The notes beneath the pieces are model-generated. The model saw only the letters and a program-made list of their open reading frames with translations. It had not been told where the DNA came from and did not search any database. This document shows positions 15,574-28,342 of a DNA stretch of 64,000 bases, in pieces. Each line of letters begins with the position of its first letter. The stretch's first letter is position 1. The translations under genes and the position numbers were made by a program. The stretch lies in NCBI GenBank assembly GCA_023957245.1, contig JAMLHJ010000014.1, positions 16,248 to 80,247 of the forward strand. The letters are read 5' to 3'. This DNA is from Chitinophagales bacterium. Its GTDB lineage: Bacteria > Bacteroidota > Bacteroidia > Chitinophagales > JADIYW01.

Positions 15574-16368
15574 ATGAATAAGCCTACGCTGACTTTAATA
15601 AAAATTGGAGGGAATATTGTAGATCATCCTGATGCTTTAAGTCGATTTTTAAATGATTTTCATCAAATCGAAGGAGAAAAAATATTAGTTCATGGAGGTG
15701 GCAAAATTGCTAGTGAACTATCTAAAACAATGGGTATTGAGCCTGTAATGATTGATGGAAGAAGAGTGACAGACAGCGAGACCTTGAAAATCGTCACTAT
15801 GGTTTATGGTGGTTTGATTAATAAACAAATCACAGCTCAACTTCAGACATTAAATACAAATGCAATTGGCATTTCTGGAGTTGATGGAAAAATAATTTTA
15901 GCACACAAAAGAAATCATCCTTCTATTGATTTTGGATATGTTGGAGATATTGAAAAAGTAGATGCTCAAAAAATAAAATCATTAATTCAAGCAGGATTTG
16001 TTCCCATTTTTGCACCATTGACTATTGACAACAAAGGTCAAATACTCAATACCAATGCCGACACAATAGCATCTTCTTTGGCTATAGCACTTAGTGAAGC
16101 ATTTCAAGTTCATTTCTATTATTGCTTTGAAAAAAAAGGATTATTGAAAGATATCAATGATGACAATTCATCCGTTCCACATATTCAGATAGGAAATATC
16201 CAGAGCCTCATTGACGACAAAACAATAGTAGCAGGAATGATTCCCAAAGTACATAATATTGAAATGGCTATTCTTAAAGGTGTACACCAAGTCAGATTGT
16301 GTCATGCTTCGGATATTTTTCATATCATTCAGGAAAACAAAGCATTAGGAACCTTATTTACAGCATAA
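15574..16368 (+). CDS. argB: Acetylglutamate kinase
   Basis: 264 aa. LIKIGGN and VHGGG motifs of the amino-acid kinase family. Confidence 0.85.
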   Translation: MNKPTLTLIKIGGNIVDHPDALSRFLNDFHQIEGEKILVHGGGKIASELSKTMGIEPVMIDGRRVTDSETLKIVTMVYGGLINKQITAQLQTLNTNAIGISGVDGKIILAHKRNHPSIDFGYVGDIEKVDAQKIKSLIQAGFVPIFAPLTIDNKGQILNTNADTIASSLAIALSEAFQVHFYYCFEKKGLLKDINDDNSSVPHIQIGNIQSLIDDKTIVAGMIPKVHNIEMAILKGVHQVRLCHASDIFHIIQENKALGTLFTA

Positions 16369-17447
16369 TGGAACAAACGATTATTTTTCAAAAAACATTT
16401 CAATTGCTGAAAGATTTGATTGCTACGCCTTCATTGAGTAGAGAAGAAGAAAATGCAGCCCAAGTCATTAGAGATTTTTTTACAACTGAAAATATAATAT
16501 TTCATACCCGTCAAAATAATACATGGGCATTCAATAAATATTTTGATAAAAATCTTCCTACCCTATTACTCAATTCACACATTGATACAGTCAAACCATC
16601 ATCTTTATACACCAAAAACCCATATAGCCCGATTGAAGAAGATGGGAAACTCTATGGTTTGGGAAGCAATGATGCAGGTGGAGCATTAGTAAGCCTTATT
16701 GGTGCATTTCTATACTTTTATGATCAAAAAAATCTTCCTTTTAATATTTGTATTGCAGCGACTGCAGAAGAAGAAATTTCAGGTTCTAATGGCATAGCTT
16801 CAATTTCTGACATTACATCTTCTTGTACACTAGCTATTGTAGGCGAACCGACAGAAATGCAAATGGCAACTGCTGAGAGAGGATTAATGGTCATAGACGC
16901 AACAGTATATGGAGTAACAGGGCATGCTGCAAGAGATACAGGAGACAATGCAATATATAAAGCAATAGAAGATATTCATTGGATCAAAAACCATCAGCTA
17001 GAAAAACTTTGCCCTGTCTTGGGAGCCACAAAAATGACAGTCACTGTTATTGAAGCAGGAAAACAGCATAATGTAGTTCCAGATATTTGCAAATATGTGA
17101 TAGATGTTCGTACTACTGCTGCTTATGATTACGAAGAACTTATCCAATTTCTTCAAAGTCATCTTCATGCACAAATCCAAGCACGTTCCACAAGGTTACA
17201 ACCAAGTGTTATAGCCGATGAGCACCCAATTGTACAAGCTGCAAAAGAATTAAATATTCCTACATTTGGTTCGGCTACACTTTCAGATCAGGCATTATTA
17301 AAAATTCCATCCATCAAAATGGGACCAGGTAAATCTGAGCGTTCACATACTGCAGATGAATATATCTTCATACAAGAACTAGAGGAAGGGTTAAATATTT
17401 ATATTCAATTAATTAAAAAACTGTCATGTTTAAAAGTAAAAAAATAA
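16368..17447 (+). CDS. M20-family acetylornithine deacetylase-like metallohydrolase
   Basis: Start at MEQTIIF (TAATG overlap with the argB stop). M20 motifs NSHIDTV, GSNDAGG and EEE. Confidence 0.75.
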   Translation: MEQTIIFQKTFQLLKDLIATPSLSREEENAAQVIRDFFTTENIIFHTRQNNTWAFNKYFDKNLPTLLLNSHIDTVKPSSLYTKNPYSPIEEDGKLYGLGSNDAGGALVSLIGAFLYFYDQKNLPFNICIAATAEEEISGSNGIASISDITSSCTLAIVGEPTEMQMATAERGLMVIDATVYGVTGHAARDTGDNAIYKAIEDIHWIKNHQLEKLCPVLGATKMTVTVIEAGKQHNVVPDICKYVIDVRTTAAYDYEELIQFLQSHLHAQIQARSTRLQPSVIADEHPIVQAAKELNIPTFGSATLSDQALLKIPSIKMGPGKSERSHTADEYIFIQELEEGLNIYIQLIKKLSCLKVKK

Positions 17448-17923
17448 CACTTGCATTATTTATATTTTTCCTCATTTTTCTGATAGGAACTTTTGTCAAA
17501 AGATATCTCATCGCACCAGAACTCGATTTAAAAGAAATAATAGTAGAATCCTCAGAGGGAGAAAAAATAGATTTAAGTCAATTTAAAGGAAAAGTAATTG
17601 TTCTTAATTTTTGGGCGACATGGTGTCCTCCGTGTGTGCAGGAAATGCCGATGTTTGAAAACGTCTATCAAGAATTGAAAAATCAAGAGATTGCATTTGT
17701 TTTAGCATCAGATGAAAGCAAAAATAGAATAGAAGCATTTAAGAGTAAACATCAATTATCTGTTCCTATTTATCTACTACATACAGAAATGAAAAAGCTA
17801 GGAATATATACCATTCCTATTACATTTATCTTTGACAAAAAAGGTAATCTTGTAGCCAAAAAGATGGGTGCATTTGAGTCTGCTGGTGAACTCATGCTTT
17901 ATATTCAGCCTTATCTCAATTAA
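17426..17923 (+). CDS. TlpA-family thiol:disulfide oxidoreductase (membrane-anchored thioredoxin fold)
   Basis: 165 aa. N-terminal TM segment and WATWCPPC active site. Confidence 0.8.
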   Translation: MFKSKKITLALFIFFLIFLIGTFVKRYLIAPELDLKEIIVESSEGEKIDLSQFKGKVIVLNFWATWCPPCVQEMPMFENVYQELKNQEIAFVLASDESKNRIEAFKSKHQLSVPIYLLHTEMKKLGIYTIPITFIFDKKGNLVAKKMGAFESAGELMLYIQPYLN

Positions 17924-20016: not shown

Positions 20017-20042
20017 AAGGGTGAACTTTACAATTCACCCTT
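20017..20042 (-). terminator. Hairpin terminator downstream of dnaJ
   Basis: aagggtgaa / ttcaccctt perfect 9-bp stem, with a T-rich tail on the minus strand. Confidence 0.65.
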
Positions 20043-20075: not shown

Positions 20076-21227
20076 TTATTTGAAGAAATCAAAAAAGCTA
20101 CCGCTTCCTTTCTTTTCTTTCACAGTTCCTGGATTAAAATTTGGAGACTCTCTTAATTTTTCCAACAAACTTTCTTCTTCAGATGTCAATTCTGTAGGTG
20201 TAAATACTTTAACTTCAATGATTTCGTCACCTCTACCATATCCATTAATATTTGGAAAACCTTTACCTTGTAATCTAAATAACTTTCCACTCTGTGTACC
20301 TTTAGGCACTTTTATTTTTGCTTTACCTGATATAGTAGGGACTTCCACAGATGTACCTAAGGCAGCATCAGCGATATTGAGATATAATTCATGGACAACA
20401 TCAATACCTTCACGTCTTAATTCTGGATGCTCAATTTCATCAACTGTAATCAATAAATCTCCAGCATAACCTCCACGAACTCCAGCATTTCCTTTGCCAT
20501 TCATAGATAACTGAATCCCTTCTGTCACACCAGCTGGAATATCTATCGTAACAACATCTTCGCTATAGATACGTCCTTCACCTCTACATTTTGTACATTT
20601 TGCAGTGATAATTTTCCCTTCACCTTCACAAGTAGGACATGCTTGAGTTGTTGCCATTTGTCCTAAAAAGGTATTAGTCACTTTACGCACAGAACCTTGA
20701 CCATGACATGTCGTACAAGTTTGATAGCTACTACTATCTTTAGCACCTGAACCATGACAAGCATCGCAAGTAACATGTTTCTTAACTTTTATCTTTTTCT
20801 GAACACCATTGGCAATTTCTTCAAAATTAAGTTTGACTTTCACACGAATATTGCTCCCACGTTGTCCTCTACCTCTTTCTGTTCTACGACCTCCGCCACC
20901 AAAAAATCCTTCAAAAGGACTTCCTTGACCAAAAATATCTCCAAATTGGGAAAAAATATCGTCCATATTCATTCCGCCACCGCCACCGAATCCTCCAGAA
21001 GCACCCATACCTGCATGTCCAAACCTATCATATTGAGCACGTTTTTGTTCGTTGCTCAATACATCATAAGCTTCAGCAGCTTCTTTAAATTTCTCCTCAG
21101 CTTCTTTATCATCAGGATTCTTATCAGGATGATATTGCATCGCTAATTTTCTATATGCCTTTTTCATTTCATCAGCAGTCGCAGATTTGCTGACTCCTAA
21201 TACTTCATAGTAATCTCTTTTTGACAT
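20076..21227 (-). CDS. dnaJ: Molecular chaperone DnaJ
   Basis: J-domain HPDKN, G/F-rich linker and four CxxCxGxG zinc-finger repeats. Confidence 0.97.
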
Positions 21228-21229
21228 TT

Positions 21230-21817
21230 TTATTTACTTACAACTACTTTAGGAAATCTTATTATCTTATCGTTTAAGACATAACCTTTTTCAGCCACAT
21301 CAAAAACTTTCCCTTTATGTTCTTCAGAAGGTGCAGGAAATTCAGCTACTGCTTCATGCTTATCTGCATCAAATATTTCACCTAATACTTCCATTTCTTT
21401 CAATCCTTTAGAAGATAAATTCCTAACCAATTTCTCTTTTATCAATGTGAAACCTTCTTTTACAGCTTCAACATCTGAAGCATTTTGAACAGCCTTCTCT
21501 GCTCTATCCAAATCATCTAAAACTGGCAATAAATCTTGCAAAATATCTTGCCCCGCAACTAATCTTGCTTCGATTTTTTCTTTTGCAATTCTTTTGCGAT
21601 AATTATCAAACTCAGCCACCAAACGAATATATTTATCATTGACTTCGTTTAATGTTGCTTGAATTTTATCCATTGTATTCTCTTCTGCCTCTTTGTCAGT
21701 ATCAATATCATTAGGAATAGTATCTGTATCCAGATTATCAGTCCCAATATTCACATTTTCTTGTTCTAGGCTATCTTCGATATTATTTTTCACTGTATTC
21801 TCCTTGTGTGCCATCAC
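21230..21817 (-). CDS. grpE: Nucleotide exchange factor GrpE
   Basis: 195 aa. Coiled-coil region plus C-terminal GrpE signature (HEAV...[16 protein letters not shown]). 2 nt upstream of dnaJ. Confidence 0.9.
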
Positions 21818-21893: not shown

Positions 21894-22436
21894 TTATTTA
21901 GACAATCTTTCCTCTAAAAACGCATTAACTGCATCTGTTGAAGGATTAATCATCAAAATATTCCCATCTGGGTCTAGCAAAATAGTCGTAGGAATGGCTC
22001 TCACTCCATAATCACTAGTAGCCTGACCATTCCAAAATTTCAAGTCGCTGGTATGATTGGACCACTCCAATTGGTCATTGGCAATGGCATCTACCCATGC
22101 TTCTTTATATCTATCCAATGAATAACTATAAATAGTAAATCCATTTTTGTTGTTGTCAAATTTCTTGTCTTTATATGTTCTATATATCCTCACTAATTCA
22201 GGATTTTTTCTTCTGCAAGGACCACACCATGATGCCCAAAAATCCAAAAGTACATAATTACCTTTCAGTTCTGAAAGCTTAATCACCTTGCCTTCAGGTG
22301 ATGGGAAAGCTATCTCTGGTGCTGGCGAACCCAATTTTACACCACGACTTTGAGCATGTAAAAAGCTAGCACTTAACGTAGTACCACAAATAAGAATTAT
22401 AGCAAAAAATAATTTATTCATTCTGTTTATTTTCAA
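21894..22436 (-). CDS. TlpA/AhpC-TSA-family periplasmic thioredoxin-like protein
   Basis: Signal peptide and WASWCGPC active site. Confidence 0.8.
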   Translation of the reverse strand: MKINRMNKLFFAIILICGTTLSASFLHAQSRGVKLGSPAPEIAFPSPEGKVIKLSELKGNYVLLDFWASWCGPCRRKNPELVRIYRTYKDKKFDNNKNGFTIYSYSLDRYKEAWVDAIANDQLEWSNHTSDLKFWNGQATSDYGVRAIPTTILLDPDGNILMINPSTDAVNAFLEERLSK

Positions 22437-22461
22437 TGTTTTTCAGTCAACTAATCTACAA

Positions 22462-23169
22462 TTATTTATTTTTTTGAGAAACAGCAGTCTTCTTTTTCTT
22501 TTTAATTTCATAGTGATATTCAATCTCAAAAGTATGTCCATTCTCAGGTTTTTTCTTATTCCATTCATGTTGATAATAATAACCGATAGCGAAAGTGTGT
22601 CTCTTTTTTAGCTCATAATCCAAATTTGTGCCATATCTCATACTATAGAAACGAGAATCACCTTTTTCTAGTTTTAAAAAATTCTCGGTATAGGCAGAAA
22701 CATCCCATTGTTTGGAGATGCGATATTCGTACTTCAATTTATTTCGCCACACCCATGAAGGGTCTTCAACTTTCCAATAATCTATATCCAGATAGTCAGA
22801 AGTAAAATTAAAAGAAGATTTCCATTGATATTGATGCTTCTTATTGGTCGTATTTTTCTTGGCTGACCAACCCCAAGCCCAACGATGTGAATCTTTTTTA
22901 TATGAAGTTCTGAAGCGGTATTCCAAATTCAATTTCAACCATTTCAACACATCATAATCCACTCCTAATGTAAAATTACTTTTACTAAAGGTGCTCATGT
23001 TTTGGTCTAAATCCAATCTGTAAGAAGTATAAAGCCCTAAAGTTTTTATAGGAGAATAGGAAACGCCAATACTCGGTCTTAATCTAGTATCAGTTTCTTG
23101 TGCTGTTACTGAAAAACCAAAAAATAAAAAACCGAAAAGCAATATTATCCATCTGTTACTCATCTTCAT
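22462..23169 (-). CDS. DUF2490-like outer-membrane beta-barrel protein
   Basis: 235 aa. Signal peptide. Alternating aromatic/polar beta-strand pattern rich in Y and W. Confidence 0.6.
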   Translation of the reverse strand: MKMSNRWIILLFGFLFFGFSVTAQETDTRLRPSIGVSYSPIKTLGLYTSYRLDLDQNMSTFSKSNFTLGVDYDVLKWLKLNLEYRFRTSYKKDSHRWAWGWSAKKNTTNKKHQYQWKSSFNFTSDYLDIDYWKVEDPSWVWRNKLKYEYRISKQWDVSAYTENFLKLEKGDSRFYSMRYGTNLDYELKKRHTFAIGYYYQHEWNKKKPENGHTFEIEYHYEIKKKKKTAVSQKNK

Positions 23170-23179
23170 TTCCTAGAAT

Positions 23180-23818
23180 TTAATCATCTGCACCTCCGCT
23201 TACTGTCTTATTTTCATTTTCTAGTGCATAATAAAAAACATAAATATTAGCAGTGTCTCTTAAAAAGTTAATACTTGTAATTTCTATTCTATGAATAGGC
23301 AAACCTGTCCTCAATTTTAAATCTGCTAGCATTTCAACTCTCCTCTCAGGAACAATCAAATCTATCCGTTCATACACGACTTCTTTCATATTTTCATGTG
23401 AAAGGTGCATGAATTTATCCAAAAGCAAGGTCGCTCCTATCACCAGTATATTGCAAAAAATAATAATGGCGAAAAACTTTCCAGGAACTGCCAATGCATT
23501 GATAATACCTAAAGTTAATGATGCAAACAAATACCCCATCTCTTTAATGGGTACAGTTACTGTCCTATATCTAATGAAACTGAATATGGCAAATAACCCG
23601 AAAGCAAACCCCATTTCAATTGTTGCAGTAGTCAACAATGCACATATTAAAAATATCAACAAATTGAATAACGCAAATGTGAAAAGGAAATCTTTATTCT
23701 TATGGGTATTGTAATAAATTAATCTTACTAATATAAAGGAAGCTAATATATCAATTATCAATCTCAAAATCAACACTTGATTGTCCCAATCGAATAATTC
23801 TGTTAAATCTAAATTCAT
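23180..23818 (-). CDS. DUF4956-like polytopic inner-membrane protein
   Basis: 212 aa with four hydrophobic segments followed by a soluble tail. N-terminus LILRLIIDILASFILVRLIYY is typical of the family that pairs with VTC-domain proteins. Confidence 0.65.
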   Translation of the reverse strand: MNLDLTELFDWDNQVLILRLIIDILASFILVRLIYYNTHKNKDFLFTFALFNLLIFLICALLTTATIEMGFAFGLFAIFSFIRYRTVTVPIKEMGYLFASLTLGIINALAVPGKFFAIIIFCNILVIGATLLLDKFMHLSHENMKEVVYERIDLIVPERRVEMLADLKLRTGLPIHRIEITSINFLRDTANIYVFYYALENENKTVSGGADD

Positions 23819-23836
23819 GCTATTTTTAAAAACTAC

Positions 23837-24589
23837 TTATGAATAAATGGGTTGGTAATCTTTTACTTTTAATATCTGAGGTTTAAAAAGATTTTTTTTA
23901 GGATGCAAATCTAATAAAACAACTCCCATCACATACTTACTAAAACTACTTGGGTAAACTCTCATTTTCTTGAGCAGTTGAACTATCGGACTCAATACAT
24001 TGTATTTTGGTTGCTTCAATTCTAATATCACTAATTCGGATAAATTTACACTTTTAAGCTCAGTATTCAATTGGATATTAAAATCAATAGTTACCCGTTC
24101 ATTTAAAGCAATATTTGCCAATGTAATACGACTAAATGTATTGACCAATTTCTTTTCCAATGGCATACCTTCCAGCTTGGGATAAGTGACCTTTTTGTAT
24201 TCTTCTGTTGAGAGATATTCATCCATTTGTTGAATTCCCCATCTTGCCTTATCGGTTTGCTGTCCAGCTAGCTTCTTTTTCACTTCATAGAATTTCACTC
24301 CAGTATTTAGATATTCTCTTTTGCGAACTTTCATTCTATGTGTATATCCATTGTGATGATCTAAATAAAATTGAAAATTGGGCGTATCAAAATATACTGT
24401 GTAATATTCAAAAATACGTTTCCCATTGATTTCCAATATCTGATAATCAGAAAATATATTTGACAATAAAAACTCTAATTGGTGTATGCTGAGAATAAAT
24501 TTTGTATCATATCTCTTAATCAGCGCCACCTTATCCAGCTCTTTCAATGACAAAGCCTCAAAATCATTTATCAAATGAGAAATAGACAT
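23837..24589 (-). CDS. VTC-domain (polyphosphate polymerase domain, CYTH/TTM-like) protein
   Basis: 250 aa, no signal peptide. RYDTKF, YYTVYFDTP, RMKVRKREY and FYEVKKK, alternating basic beta-strands typical of the Vtc4-type tunnel fold. Confidence 0.7.
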   Translation of the reverse strand: MSISHLINDFEALSLKELDKVALIKRYDTKFILSIHQLEFLLSNIFSDYQILEINGKRIFEYYTVYFDTPNFQFYLDHHNGYTHRMKVRKREYLNTGVKFYEVKKKLAGQQTDKARWGIQQMDEYLSTEEYKKVTYPKLEGMPLEKKLVNTFSRITLANIALNERVTIDFNIQLNTELKSVNLSELVILELKQPKYNVLSPIVQLLKKMRVYPSSFSKYVMGVVLLDLHPKKNLFKPQILKVKDYQPIYS

Positions 24590-24592
24590 TTA

Positions 24593-24985
24593 TTAAATAT
24601 TTATTTCAAAAACAGGCAATTCAACCTTTGATTTCTTTCCACTAATATTTACTTCTTGAATAACGGCTTCCACGCCATTGGGACAAGCTTTACAATCTGA
24701 ATATACCCACACTTCATAATCTCCTTTTCTCAATTGACTGAATTGAAAAGAACCATCATAAATTGTCCTTATTCTATCAATGATTTCTTTATCATCTTTC
24801 GCTTTAATATATACTTCAATATCACCAGCATATCCTTCAGATAATAAATCTCCAGAATTGCTATAATCATGAGCATATACACGTCCCGAAACACTCGCCA
24901 AACCACCATATCCTTCTTCTTTTTCACAGGATATGAGTGTCAATAATACAGCTAAGCCAACAACAGAAGAAAACCTTTTAATCAC
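24593..24985 (-). CDS. Small lipoprotein with a carboxypeptidase-regulatory-like beta-sandwich signature
   Basis: 130 aa. Lipobox LISC. GRVY...GSFQFSQLRKGDYEVWV resembles CarboxypepD_reg domains. Confidence 0.5.
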   Translation of the reverse strand: MIKRFSSVVGLAVLLTLISCEKEEGYGGLASVSGRVYAHDYSNSGDLLSEGYAGDIEVYIKAKDDKEIIDRIRTIYDGSFQFSQLRKGDYEVWVYSDCKACPNGVEAVIQEVNISGKKSKVELPVFEINI

Positions 24986-25005: not shown

Positions 25006-25035
25006 AAAAAGGAAGCTATAAAAATAACTTCCTTT
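25006..25035 (-). terminator. Hairpin terminator downstream of the saccharopine-dehydrogenase-family gene
   Basis: aaaaggaag / cttcctttt stem, with a T-run on the minus strand. Confidence 0.55.
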
Positions 25036-25096
25036 TAAAAATATATATTTTTTGGGAAATTTAGTATTAAAAAGAAATTTACTTCCCAAATCTTTC

Positions 25097-26416: not shown

Positions 26417-26848
26417 TTATCCCTCCTGACATTCAGAGCATATACCTTGTACCAATAAATTAACTTGATGAATTGTAAAACCTTTCAATACAGGCAAGTG
26501 TGGGATTTCCATATCATGAAAACAAATCACTTTGGAGCAAACTTCACATTTGAAATGTATGTGATTGTCATTATGCTGATGCTCATTGCAATTGTGCTTA
26601 CATAATGCAAATTTTGCCACTCCTGAATCATCAAATACCTTGTGAAGTAATCCTTTTTCAAGAAAGCTGTTCAATGTACGATAGATTGTCACTCTATCAT
26701 ATTCTTTTGTTAATCGAGCTTCAATATCTGCATGTGACCAGGCTACATCTTTTTCAACAAAACAGTACAATACCTTTTTTCTCACATCTGTGATACGTAA
26801 ACTGTGTTTTTTTAAAAGATTTTCTACCATTTCTAAATAATTTTTCAT
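26417..26848 (-). CDS. Fur-family metal-responsive transcriptional regulator
   Basis: 143 aa. Winged helix (RVTIYRTLNSFLEKGLL), H-rich metal site HNCNEHQHNDNHIHFKCEVC and C-terminal CSEC. Confidence 0.8.
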   Translation of the reverse strand: MKNYLEMVENLLKKHSLRITDVRKKVLYCFVEKDVAWSHADIEARLTKEYDRVTIYRTLNSFLEKGLLHKVFDDSGVAKFALCKHNCNEHQHNDNHIHFKCEVCSKVICFHDMEIPHLPVLKGFTIHQVNLLVQGICSECQEG

Positions 26849-26856
26849 TTAAAATA

Positions 26857-26871
26857 TGCAACACTGTTGCA
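26857..26871. promoter_or_regulatory. Perfect palindrome TGCAAC-ACT-GTTGCA in the fur/merC-like divergent region (candidate operator)
   Basis: 6-3-6 inverted repeat. It abuts the exact -7 box of the fur-like gene (TAAATTTG on the minus strand, 26870-26877) and lies 8 nt from the merC-like -7 box (TATTTTTG, 26879-26886). Confidence 0.4.
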
Positions 26872-26903
26872 AATTTAATATTTTTGCATCTGAAATCATT
26901 ATC

Positions 26904-27287
26904 ATGAGCAAATCTAACCATAATCATTCGCATAAAATAGGTAAAATCAGTACTGTCTTATCTATATTATGTGCTATACATTGTGCTGCCACTCCTATTC
27001 TAGTCATCTTTCTTCCGTTTTTAGGAAGTCATGGCTCTGATTGGTTTGAGATTGCTATGATAATATTTATTATCATTTTGGGAGGGTCTTCATTACAACA
27101 TAGTTATAAAGGTCATCACCAAAACATATTTCCAGCTATTTATTTTGGCATAGGAGTCACATTAATGGTGATAGGCTTATTTTTACATTCAGATGAATTG
27201 ACTACAATACATACTATCGTAATGGTAACAGGTGGAATTTTTAGTGCTATCGGTCAGATATACAATTTAAAACTCAGTCATTTTTAA
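26904..27287 (+). CDS. MerC-family membrane protein
   Basis: Start placed at MSKSNHNHSH. Four TM segments with the CAIHCAATP cysteine pair typical of MerC-domain proteins. Divergent from the Fur-family gene. Confidence 0.65.
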   Translation: MSKSNHNHSHKIGKISTVLSILCAIHCAATPILVIFLPFLGSHGSDWFEIAMIIFIIILGGSSLQHSYKGHHQNIFPAIYFGIGVTLMVIGLFLHSDELTTIHTIVMVTGGIFSAIGQIYNLKLSHF

Positions 27288-27764: not shown

Positions 27765-28064
27765 TTATTCATTAAGTCTGATTTTCAAGTCCATTCGTTC
27801 GTGCAATATTCTTGTTATCTCAATTGGTCTTTCATTCAGCTTTCGATAAAAAATTATGTGTCGGTTTACTTTTAGTCCGAAAAGTTCATCTCTAATTCCG
27901 TCATATTTTTTTCCGATGTTTGGATCATCTGCAATACGTCGGCAATTTTCAAGCAACATTTCATAATATTTGTCAGCTTGTTTTTCCGACCATTTATCAA
28001 ACGTATAATCCCAAATTTTCGTCAAATCTTCAACAGCTTCATTGGTCAATTTATATTTTACCAT
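27765..28064 (-). CDS. parE: Type II toxin-antitoxin system RelE/ParE-family toxin
   Basis: 99 aa. LTNEAVEDLTKIWDYT...IIFYRKL...IEITRILHERMD is typical of ParE. Overlaps the antitoxin stop by 14 nt. Confidence 0.85.
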   Translation of the reverse strand: MVKYKLTNEAVEDLTKIWDYTFDKWSEKQADKYYEMLLENCRRIADDPNIGKKYDGIRDELFGLKVNRHIIFYRKLNERPIEITRILHERMDLKIRLNE

Positions 28065-28305
28065 TACTTCGTTTTATCTCTTTTAATTGTTGAAGATGTT
28101 TTTCAGGGTCAAAATCGTGAGCAATCCCGCTGTCAATTCCTTTCTGAATTGCAGCTTTTAGAGCAATAACTTTACTTTCTTCTTCTTCCAAAAGTCGCAA
28201 TCCTGCCCGAACTACTTCACTAACATTCTTATAGCGTCCTGCTGATACTTGGTTACTTACAAACTGGTCAAAATAATCTCCAAGTGATATTGATGTATTT
28301 TTCAT
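28051..28305 (-). CDS. parD: Type II toxin-antitoxin system ParD-family (RHH) antitoxin
   Basis: Start at MKNTSISLGDYF. VSEVVRAGLRLLEEEE is typical of the ParD/CopG ribbon-helix-helix. Confidence 0.85.
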   Translation of the reverse strand: MKNTSISLGDYFDQFVSNQVSAGRYKNVSEVVRAGLRLLEEEESKVIALKAAIQKGIDSGIAHDFDPEKHLQQLKEIKRSNGKI

Positions 28306-28325
28306 ACTTAATCTTTTTCCTAAAG

Positions 28326-28342
28326 TTACCAAAAATTGGTAA
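28326..28342. promoter_or_regulatory. Perfect palindrome TTACCAA-AAA-TTGGTAA upstream of parD (candidate autoregulatory operator)
   Basis: 7-3-7 inverted repeat, 21-37 nt upstream of the parD ATG. Confidence 0.45.

Follow-up and report, generated by a model that had tools for sequence, protein, structure and literature searches.

We analysed a 64,000-nucleotide (nt) stretch of the genome of a Chitinophagales bacterium (GenBank assembly GCA_023957245.1, contig JAMLHJ010000014.1, positions 16,248 to 80,247), which is referred to in its entirety as the window. On its minus strand, a gene for a stand-alone protein related to the polyphosphate (polyP) polymerase domain of the yeast VTC complex is set among genes for a membrane protein and for envelope proteins. 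The gene order lipoprotein, VTC, DUF4956 and DUF2490 is a conserved four-gene cassette that is widespread in Bacteroidota and carries annotation by domain names only. The cassette genes are listed below in the order of transcription, followed by the gene that lies next to them.

24593..24985, minus strand: lipoprotein, 130 amino acids (aa); open reading frame (ORF), first gene of the cassette, with a GTG start
23837..24589, minus strand: VTC-type tunnel enzyme, 250 aa; ORF and Pfam VTC
23180..23818, minus strand: DUF4956 inner-membrane protein, 212 aa; ORF and Pfam DUF4956
22462..23169, minus strand: DUF2490 putative outer-membrane beta-barrel, 235 aa; ORF and Pfam DUF2490
21894..22436, minus strand: exported TlpA/ResA-like thioredoxin, 180 aa; ORF and Pfam, a neighbour outside the conserved cassette

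The intergenic gaps from the lipoprotein gene to the thioredoxin gene are 3, 18, 10 and 25 nt. A first-pass annotation of this DNA had described these five same-strand ORFs, with the same coordinates and gaps and with grpE-dnaJ following after 76 nt, and all of this matches the ORF list. It had also proposed a layout of cytoplasmic, membrane, periplasmic and outer-membrane components, which agrees with the signals read from the protein sequences (a lipobox and signal peptides, with none in the VTC protein). Domains were called at the Pfam gathering cutoffs, and the VTC, DUF4956 and DUF2490 assignments of that annotation are each backed by the hidden Markov model (HMM) scores given below. NCBIfam was also scanned and provided no model for four of the five proteins.

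The VTC protein matched Pfam VTC (PF09359) with 79.4 bits against a cutoff of 23 (E = 3.9e-22), over profile positions 1–233 of 235. It consists of the tunnel domain alone, without a signal peptide, a transmembrane segment or an SPX domain. When its AlphaFold2 (AF2) model (predicted local distance difference test (pLDDT) score of 93.4, predicted template modelling (pTM) score of 0.89) was searched with Foldseek, ranks 1–13 were all tunnel domains of yeast Vtc4, Vtc3 or Vtc2, with E values of 5.5e-11 to 3.6e-9 and query-normalised TM-scores of 0.52–0.64, while YgiF and other tunnel enzymes ranked lower. As modelled, the protein has a closed beta-barrel tunnel fold that is nearest to Vtc4/3/2. 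A search of the Protein Data Bank (PDB) with the single sequence gave no match; a 32-sequence profile of the family matched only yeast Vtc2 and Vtc4 at E < 0.01. The identity within this alignment is 23–72%, and 23 residues, mainly basic or acidic, are invariant.

Nine residues of Vtc4 are known to lower polyP when mutated: K200, R264, R266, K281, R361, K458, S457, Y359, and E426 (bioRxiv 10.1101/2023.01.27.525886). E426 is a Mn2+ ligand, K458 is the sole one of the nine that differs in the inactive Vtc2 and Vtc3, and the change Y359F reduces polyP in yeast (bioRxiv 10.1101/2023.01.27.525886). We mapped these residues from the printed HMM alignments, which agree with the numbering of the yeast protein once a chain offset of 185 is applied. 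Residues K30, R89, R91 and K104 of the window protein correspond to Vtc4 K200, R264, R266 and K281, and R154, E190, S217 and K218 correspond to R361, E426, S457 and K458; all eight are invariant in 32/32 homologs. The catalytic basic residues of the tunnel are thus in place, with eight of the nine critical Vtc4 residues retained, K458 among them. The basic residues R196 and K428 at the tunnel exit of Vtc4 are also kept, as R26 and K192. On the basis of sequence and model, the VTC protein is probably a Mn2+/ATP-dependent polyP polymerase of the Vtc4 type, predicted to be cytoplasmic.

The family is a large one: out of 1.84 billion cluster representatives at 50% identity, 12,271 match at E <= 1e-3 and 2,655 still do so at E <= 1e-30. 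Its top matches are all stand-alone proteins of about 250 aa. In two metagenome-assembled genomes (MAGs), the VTC gene is split into two ORFs (L059, 5150–5894; L070, 5141–5864), by a frameshift or an assembly error; the L059 sequence is a 'tig' contig, likely from long reads.

Gene order was examined in 80 Bacteroidota loci collected with the DUF4956 alignment and analysed by tblastn, ORF clustering and custom HMMs; the denominator for each neighbour gene is the number of loci with enough flanking sequence. The VTC gene lies directly upstream of the DUF4956 gene on the same strand in 76/77 loci; in L081 and L083, the pair is contiguous or overlapping. The separation of the catalytic domain and its membrane partner into two genes, already pointed out in the first-pass annotation, is therefore combined with an obligate linkage, and the gene order is conserved well beyond this strain. 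Beside this pair, the lipoprotein gene was found (upstream of VTC) in 48 of 75 loci, the DUF2490 barrel gene in 49 of 75, a gene for a CotH-family kinase in 29 of 69, where it heads the cassette, and a PfkB kinase gene in 17 of 66. L083 is typical of the full unit, with genes for CotH, a 133-aa protein, VTC, DUF4956 and DUF2490. The lipoprotein and the barrel tend to occur together: both are present in 42 loci, neither in 22 and only one in 6 (Fisher test, 4e-12, without phylogenetic correction). Chance adjacency of the four core genes is ruled out by this conservation of order. The closest public relative is a Chitinophagales MAG (L001), in which nine genes from Fur to dnaJ are collinear with those of the window, at 71–98% protein identity. 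Since the core is conserved and the thioredoxin is present only in the five closest relatives, we describe the locus as a four-gene cassette with a neighbouring thioredoxin gene.

The DUF4956 protein matched Pfam DUF4956 (PF16316) along the full-length profile (166.4 bits against 30.6, E = 6e-49). It is better conserved than the enzyme, with 54–87% identity versus 23–72% in the respective alignments. Conservation is highest in the loops HKNKDFLFTF and RYRTVTVPIKEMGY, and its conserved basic loops are HKNK (39–42) and RYRTVTVPIK (83–92). From the positive-inside rule, we infer that these basic loops and the C-terminal domain are cytoplasmic, on the same side as the VTC protein. The AF2 model has five helices, read as four to five transmembrane segments, and ends in a beta-alpha-beta-beta (ACT-like) domain (residues ~141–198, pLDDT ~85). 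Foldseek with this weak model gave no significant match; weak hits of the ACT/NikR/IlvN type were obtained for the C-terminal domain. PMC12345266 claims a relatedness to MgtC, which neither Pfam nor the PDB profile search recovered: not one of 40 DUF4956 members matched Pfam MgtC (PF02308) at E <= 10.

The DUF2490 protein is a putative outer-membrane beta-barrel, as predicted from its match to Pfam DUF2490 (PF10677; TC 1.B.81) with 41.7 bits against 29.8 (E = 1.3e-10) and from a score of 26.7 bits for OMP_b-brl, just below the cutoff of 28.7. A cleavable signal peptide can be read from its sequence (cleavage between ..VTAQ and E). The protein is strongly basic (42 K+R vs 25 D+E), and its C-terminus is an oligo-lysine tail, ..EIKKKKKTAVSQKNK (window 22462–22510). 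Barrel proteins normally end in an aromatic residue, and such a tail is unusual. Nearly all of the 41 homologs (L001–L077) share both the oligo-lysine tail after the last strand and the basic composition (~40 K+R vs ~22 D+E). Outer-membrane barrels normally have their termini on the periplasmic side, so the polycationic tail is predicted to lie at the place reached by a polyanion that exits the inner membrane. A homolog search with the window protein returned only 6 close matches, and the sole PDB matches of the family profile, to KdgM (E 0.087) and OmpG, were not significant. The Transporter Classification Database (TCDB) lists DUF2490 as a putative porin family whose function is not established (PMC4827864).

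The lipoprotein has a lipobox, LISC, with the cysteine at position 20 of 130 aa, as read from the sequence. From the lipidated cysteine onwards, the family shows the motif C-K/E-K-E-x-G-x-GG-L-A-S-I-x-G-K-V-Y; acidic or lysine-rich residues after the cysteine resemble the Bacteroidota surface-export signal, which makes them a candidate for such a signal. The CarboxypepD_reg-like sandwich named in the first-pass annotation has support at the level of the family, where 27/28 members have weak matches to CarboxypepD_reg (best 3.4e-6) and the profile matches the transthyretin-like repeats of NOMO2 (2e-12); the window protein itself stays below the Pfam threshold (PF13620, 13.6 vs 32.3 bits). A CxxC motif at C98/C101 (window 24683–24694) is kept in 38/42 homologs, and a disulfide or a metal site are candidate roles for it.

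CotH is the commonest extra partner of the pair and was missing from the list of partners in the first-pass annotation. The CotH proteins of related cassettes bear sorting domains of the type IX secretion system (T9SS), either Por_Secre_tail or CHU_C. Outside Bacteroidota, CotH, a 'polyphosphate polymerase' and DUF4956 form a trio of accessory genes that has been noted in Gram-positive pel loci (10.1101/768473), and the VTC-DUF4956 pair is also found in Streptococcus, Clostridia and Bifidobacterium (10.1101/768473; PMC12345266). In S. intermedius, Pel-dependent aggregation was lowered when either SIR_1592, a gene of the DUF4956 type, or SIR_1594, which codes for CotH, was deleted, and a link to phosphate metabolism was proposed by the authors without biochemistry (PMC12345266). 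The statement in the first-pass annotation that no bacterial module of this kind has an experimentally defined function thus stands as far as biochemistry is concerned and has to be amended for these deletion phenotypes. In B. thetaiotaomicron, BT3498-99 are an adjacent DUF4956/DUF2490 pair (PMC10434189), and reviews treat VTC as a 'eukaryote-type' polymerase (PMC12526157). An extracellular link is suggested because the T9SS-secreted CotH heads 29 of 69 loci and because deletions of the Gram-positive counterparts affect an exopolysaccharide-dependent surface phenotype (PMC12345266).

Two further gene arrangements were observed upstream of the cassette. In Chitinophagaceae (L008–L014, L017, L021, L024 and L056), a set of genes recurs that code for CotH, a Cys-rich protein of 125 aa, a tRNA_anti-like protein, YceI and a DUF5777 membrane beta-barrel; in L008, L009, L011 and L056, a gene for a LytTR response regulator comes before this set. 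In L052, L058 and L076, a 658-aa PPDK_N protein (phosphoenolpyruvate/pyruvate-binding, ATP-grasp-like) takes the place of CotH directly upstream of VTC, and its gene is preceded by tandem small paralogous ORFs.

Taken together, the locus and its relatives present a Vtc4-like enzyme with an essentially intact active site, a near-obligate coupling of this enzyme to DUF4956, an outer-membrane barrel and a lipoprotein that co-vary in diderms, and a frequent linkage to the secreted kinase CotH. Our tentative model, which we put forward as possible, is that the cassette makes polyP at the inner membrane and hands it outward through DUF4956, the barrel and the lipoprotein. Judging by its fold and active-site conservation, the soluble VTC protein would polymerise polyP from ATP with Mn2+. 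By analogy with yeast VTC and given the obligate gene pairing, it would dock on an oligomer of the DUF4956 inner-membrane protein, whose basic cytoplasmic loops and ACT-like domain may take over the growing chain and transfer it to the periplasm. In diderm hosts, the co-occurrence and composition of the outer-membrane components suggest that the basic DUF2490 barrel and the lipoprotein could carry the polyanion to or through the outer membrane, the periplasmic oligo-lysine tail of the barrel capturing the chain. The product would then have its role on the cell surface, which in many relatives it would share with a secreted CotH-family kinase. Thioredoxin, grpE and dnaJ would be neighbours by lineage synteny, possibly co-transcribed, and not parts of the machine. 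Such a trans-envelope route fits with the basic, oligo-lysine-tailed barrel family and with the locus of an Anaerolineaceae bacterium, a monoderm, where the VTC-DUF4956 pair has a Cthe_2159 protein and a two-component system as its neighbours and neither the barrel nor the lipoprotein lies beside it.

Several observations count against this outward-handling model. The barrel and the lipoprotein are both missing beside the pair in about a third of the Bacteroidota loci (22/70), and the Fisher statistic for their co-occurrence ignores kinship. No CotH was detected in the 64-kb window by tblastn or HMM, and Pfam scans of the ORFs over ~10–40 kb revealed no gene of phosphate metabolism. The position of Vtc4 Y359 is occupied by F152 in the window protein (F in 24/32 members, Y in 8/32), a real caveat for polymerase activity because Y359F is deleterious in yeast. 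The AF2 model of DUF4956 is weak (pLDDT 66 overall, with low confidence in the transmembrane part), and the family profile matched no PDB chain at E <= 10, including those of the VTC complex. The comparison of DUF4956 with the yeast channel in the first-pass annotation is thus reduced to an analogy with Vtc1, since neither sequence nor fold similarity was detected. The layout of transmembrane helices followed by an ACT-like domain is also that of regulators such as MgtC, as argued in PMC12345266. Finally, our literature search found no functional study of a bacterial VTC protein.

The alternative that survives best, although we consider it somewhat unlikely, is that polyP is made at the membrane and stays in the cytoplasm, with DUF4956 acting as an anchor and sensor that switches the polymerase on or off and with the barrel and lipoprotein importing phosphate or a counter-cation to supply it. 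The intact VTC active site suits this reading; phosphate and anion uptake porins are also small basic barrels, and the outer-membrane parts are dispensed with in 22/70 loci. DUF4956 lacks similarity to the VTC channel, and its C-terminal domain weakly resembles ACT/NikR/IlvN, in line with the MgtC and ACT comparison of PMC12345266. However, none of the 40 DUF4956 members gave a Pfam MgtC signal, the eukaryotic homolog is obligately coupled to translocation, uptake of inorganic phosphate needs no periplasmic oligo-lysine tail, and the secreted CotH kinases and the exopolysaccharide loci (10.1101/768473) point outward.

It is unlikely, in our view, that the tunnel enzyme is not a polymerase at all and instead hydrolyses, or transfers from, a triphosphate, the cassette and CotH together phosphorylating a surface polymer or protein or modifying it in another way. 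Most characterised members of the triphosphate tunnel metalloenzyme (TTM)/CYTH group are hydrolases, and YgiF, SaTTM and ThTPase do appear lower in the same fold search. The genetic ties of the module to Pel loci and CotH kinases (10.1101/768473; PMC12345266) and the impairment of yeast polyP synthesis by the change of Y359 to F would also suit such an enzyme. Against this, Vtc4/3/2 are the nearest structures (ranks 1–13) and the only significant PDB matches by sequence, and the polymerase-specific K458 is invariant. A Tyr is present at the Y359 position in 8/32 members, and this position therefore seems to tolerate both Phe and Tyr.

The outward-handling model can be extended into a joint proposal that we regard as improbable. 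The cassette would export polyP across both membranes as an extracellular phosphoryl and energy currency, and secreted CotH kinases would use polyP instead of ATP to phosphorylate surface proteins or exopolysaccharides, CotH being a T9SS cargo in Bacteroidota and Sec-secreted in streptococci. In this joint proposal, extracellular phosphorylation would be fuelled by polyP, and the system would be a bacterial counterpart of the VTC translocase of eukaryotes, which is coupled to synthesis, and might even be its ancestor.

The thioredoxin next to the cassette has a WCGPC motif and a cleavable signal peptide (cleavage between ..LHAQ and S). It scored above the Pfam cutoffs for Thioredoxin_8 and Redoxin and also matched AhpC-TSA, in agreement with the earlier call of a secreted TlpA-like thioredoxin. 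Membership in TlpA/ResA is at the superfamily level only, as the NCBIfam scores are far below their own cutoffs (TlpA equivalog, 55 vs 230 bits; ResA subfamily, 72 vs 170 bits). The gene follows the cassette in 5/66 loci, exactly the closest relatives L001–L005, which also retain grpE-dnaJ, and it is thus a lineage-synteny neighbour. This distribution rules out a five-gene unit as the general form of the system, and the five-gene system of the first-pass annotation is accordingly narrowed to the core lipoprotein-VTC-DUF4956-DUF2490. A second exported TlpA/AhpC-like thioredoxin paralog is encoded at 17426–17923 on the plus strand and overlaps the 3' end of an M20 peptidase gene (16299–17447) by 22 nt. 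That the thioredoxin is nonetheless an integral periplasmic part, for example by keeping the CxxC of the lipoprotein reduced, is a reading that overlaps with the other models and would suit its export with a WCGPC motif, its position on the same strand after a 25-nt gap, the lack of a terminator-like site before dnaJ and the CxxC in 38/42 lipoproteins, but it is very unlikely given those five closely related loci, the paralog 4 kb away and the abundance of TlpA-like proteins in Bacteroidota.

The remaining features of the transcribed block are as follows.

25007..25036, minus strand: terminator-like hairpin and U tract between the carboxynorspermidine-synthase-like gene and the lipoprotein gene; -14.3 kcal/mol, z = -5.5
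21230..21817, minus strand: grpE (ORF), 76 nt after the thioredoxin gene
20076..21227, minus strand: dnaJ (ORF), after grpE
20017..20042, minus strand: terminator-like hairpin and U tract after dnaJ; -15.7 kcal/mol, z = -5.5

A terminator scan and RNA folding showed that the seven-gene block from the lipoprotein gene to dnaJ is bracketed by these two hairpins, the one at 25007–25036 marking its upstream boundary. The gap between the thioredoxin gene and grpE has no significant RNA structure (z = -0.26). Since the first terminator-like signal downstream of the cassette follows dnaJ, the cassette, thioredoxin, grpE and dnaJ may be co-transcribed in this lineage; in most genomes, the cassette is not adjacent to the thioredoxin, grpE or dnaJ genes. 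It should be noted that the upstream hairpin is only ~21 nt from the GTG start of the lipoprotein gene, a distance that would hardly accommodate a promoter. Transcripts of the upstream polyamine gene would then read through or be attenuated at this site, unless an unrecognised promoter serves the lipoprotein gene. A sigma-70 promoter scan gave 30 sites where 32 are expected from shuffled sequence, i.e., no excess. The exact Bacteroidetes -7 motif (TAnnTTTG) was absent before the lipoprotein gene and before grpE, and present only upstream of the carboxynorspermidine-synthase-like gene.

The surroundings of the cassette are ordinary chromosomal genes of a T9SS-bearing member of the Bacteroidota. 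They include a Fur-family regulator gene (26417–26848, minus strand) and a gene for a MerC-family membrane protein (26856–27287, plus strand), which are divergent, 7 nt apart, and also adjoin the cassette in L001. About 3 kb upstream of the cassette, an overlapping ParE-toxin/ParD-antitoxin pair is encoded on the minus strand (27765–28064 and 28051–28332; Pfam 3.8e-18 and 4.1e-24).

Bacterial polyP synthesis is usually attributed to PPK1 and PPK2, yet stand-alone Vtc4-like proteins with an intact active site make up a large family in bacteria, and their gene is nearly always tied to DUF4956. An active enzyme would be a third bacterial polyP synthase, and a coupling of synthesis to export would explain how bacteria could put polyP in the periplasm or on the surface. 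Such exported polyP would be a plausible phosphoryl donor for secreted CotH kinases, which lack extracellular ATP, and would link the system to Pel-dependent aggregation in streptococci. The question is also relevant to phosphorus cycling by wastewater and freshwater Chitinophagales.

Several known systems can be compared with the cassette. MgtC, a comparison taken from PMC12345266, has the same succession of several transmembrane helices and a small cytoplasmic beta-alpha-beta-beta domain. It differs in that it regulates F1Fo and PhoR and has no tunnel enzyme as a partner, and that no Pfam signal in 40 DUF4956 members and no PDB match connect the two. The small anion porins KdgM and NanC are similar in size to the DUF2490 protein (~210 aa when mature), and they are basic barrels suited to acidic oligomers, as is the DUF2490 barrel. 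The match of the DUF2490 profile to KdgM is not significant (E about 0.09), however, DUF2490 is a putative porin family of its own, and to our knowledge an oligo-lysine C-terminal tail is not a feature of KdgM/NanC. PPK1 and PPK2 share the predicted product, polyP made from ATP, but have an unrelated fold and mechanism and release polyP into the cytoplasm without dedicated envelope partners.

The S. intermedius genes SIR_1594/1593/1592 are a closer parallel, with the same VTC and DUF4956 pair and a secreted CotH partner that recurs in many Bacteroidota relatives. In contrast to that locus, the window has neither CotH nor pel genes, and the CotH of Bacteroidota has a T9SS sorting domain in place of the secretion signal of Gram-positive bacteria. 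In the diderm version, the pair is joined by the DUF2490 barrel and the lipoprotein, which we did not find described in the papers searched.

The yeast VTC complex (Vtc4/Vtc3/Vtc1; PDB 7YTJ and 8I6V; Vtc4 tunnel domain, 3G3Q/3G3R) has the same tunnel fold and gives the best structural matches. The likeness extends to 8/9 critical active-site residues, including K458 and E426, to the exit residues R196 and K428, and to the obligate linkage of the enzyme to an integral membrane protein. The catalytic domain of the window is, however, a free 250-aa protein without SPX, without a fused domain of three transmembrane segments and without an inactive Vtc2/3-like paralog, and it has Phe at the position of Y359. 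Its partner DUF4956, with about five helices and an ACT-like domain, bears no detectable likeness to the Vtc1-type channel, and an outer-membrane barrel and a lipoprotein are added. The system is not categorically new: it is a polyP polymerase of the VTC type that is encoded separately from a membrane partner of non-homologous origin and has gained outer-membrane parts.

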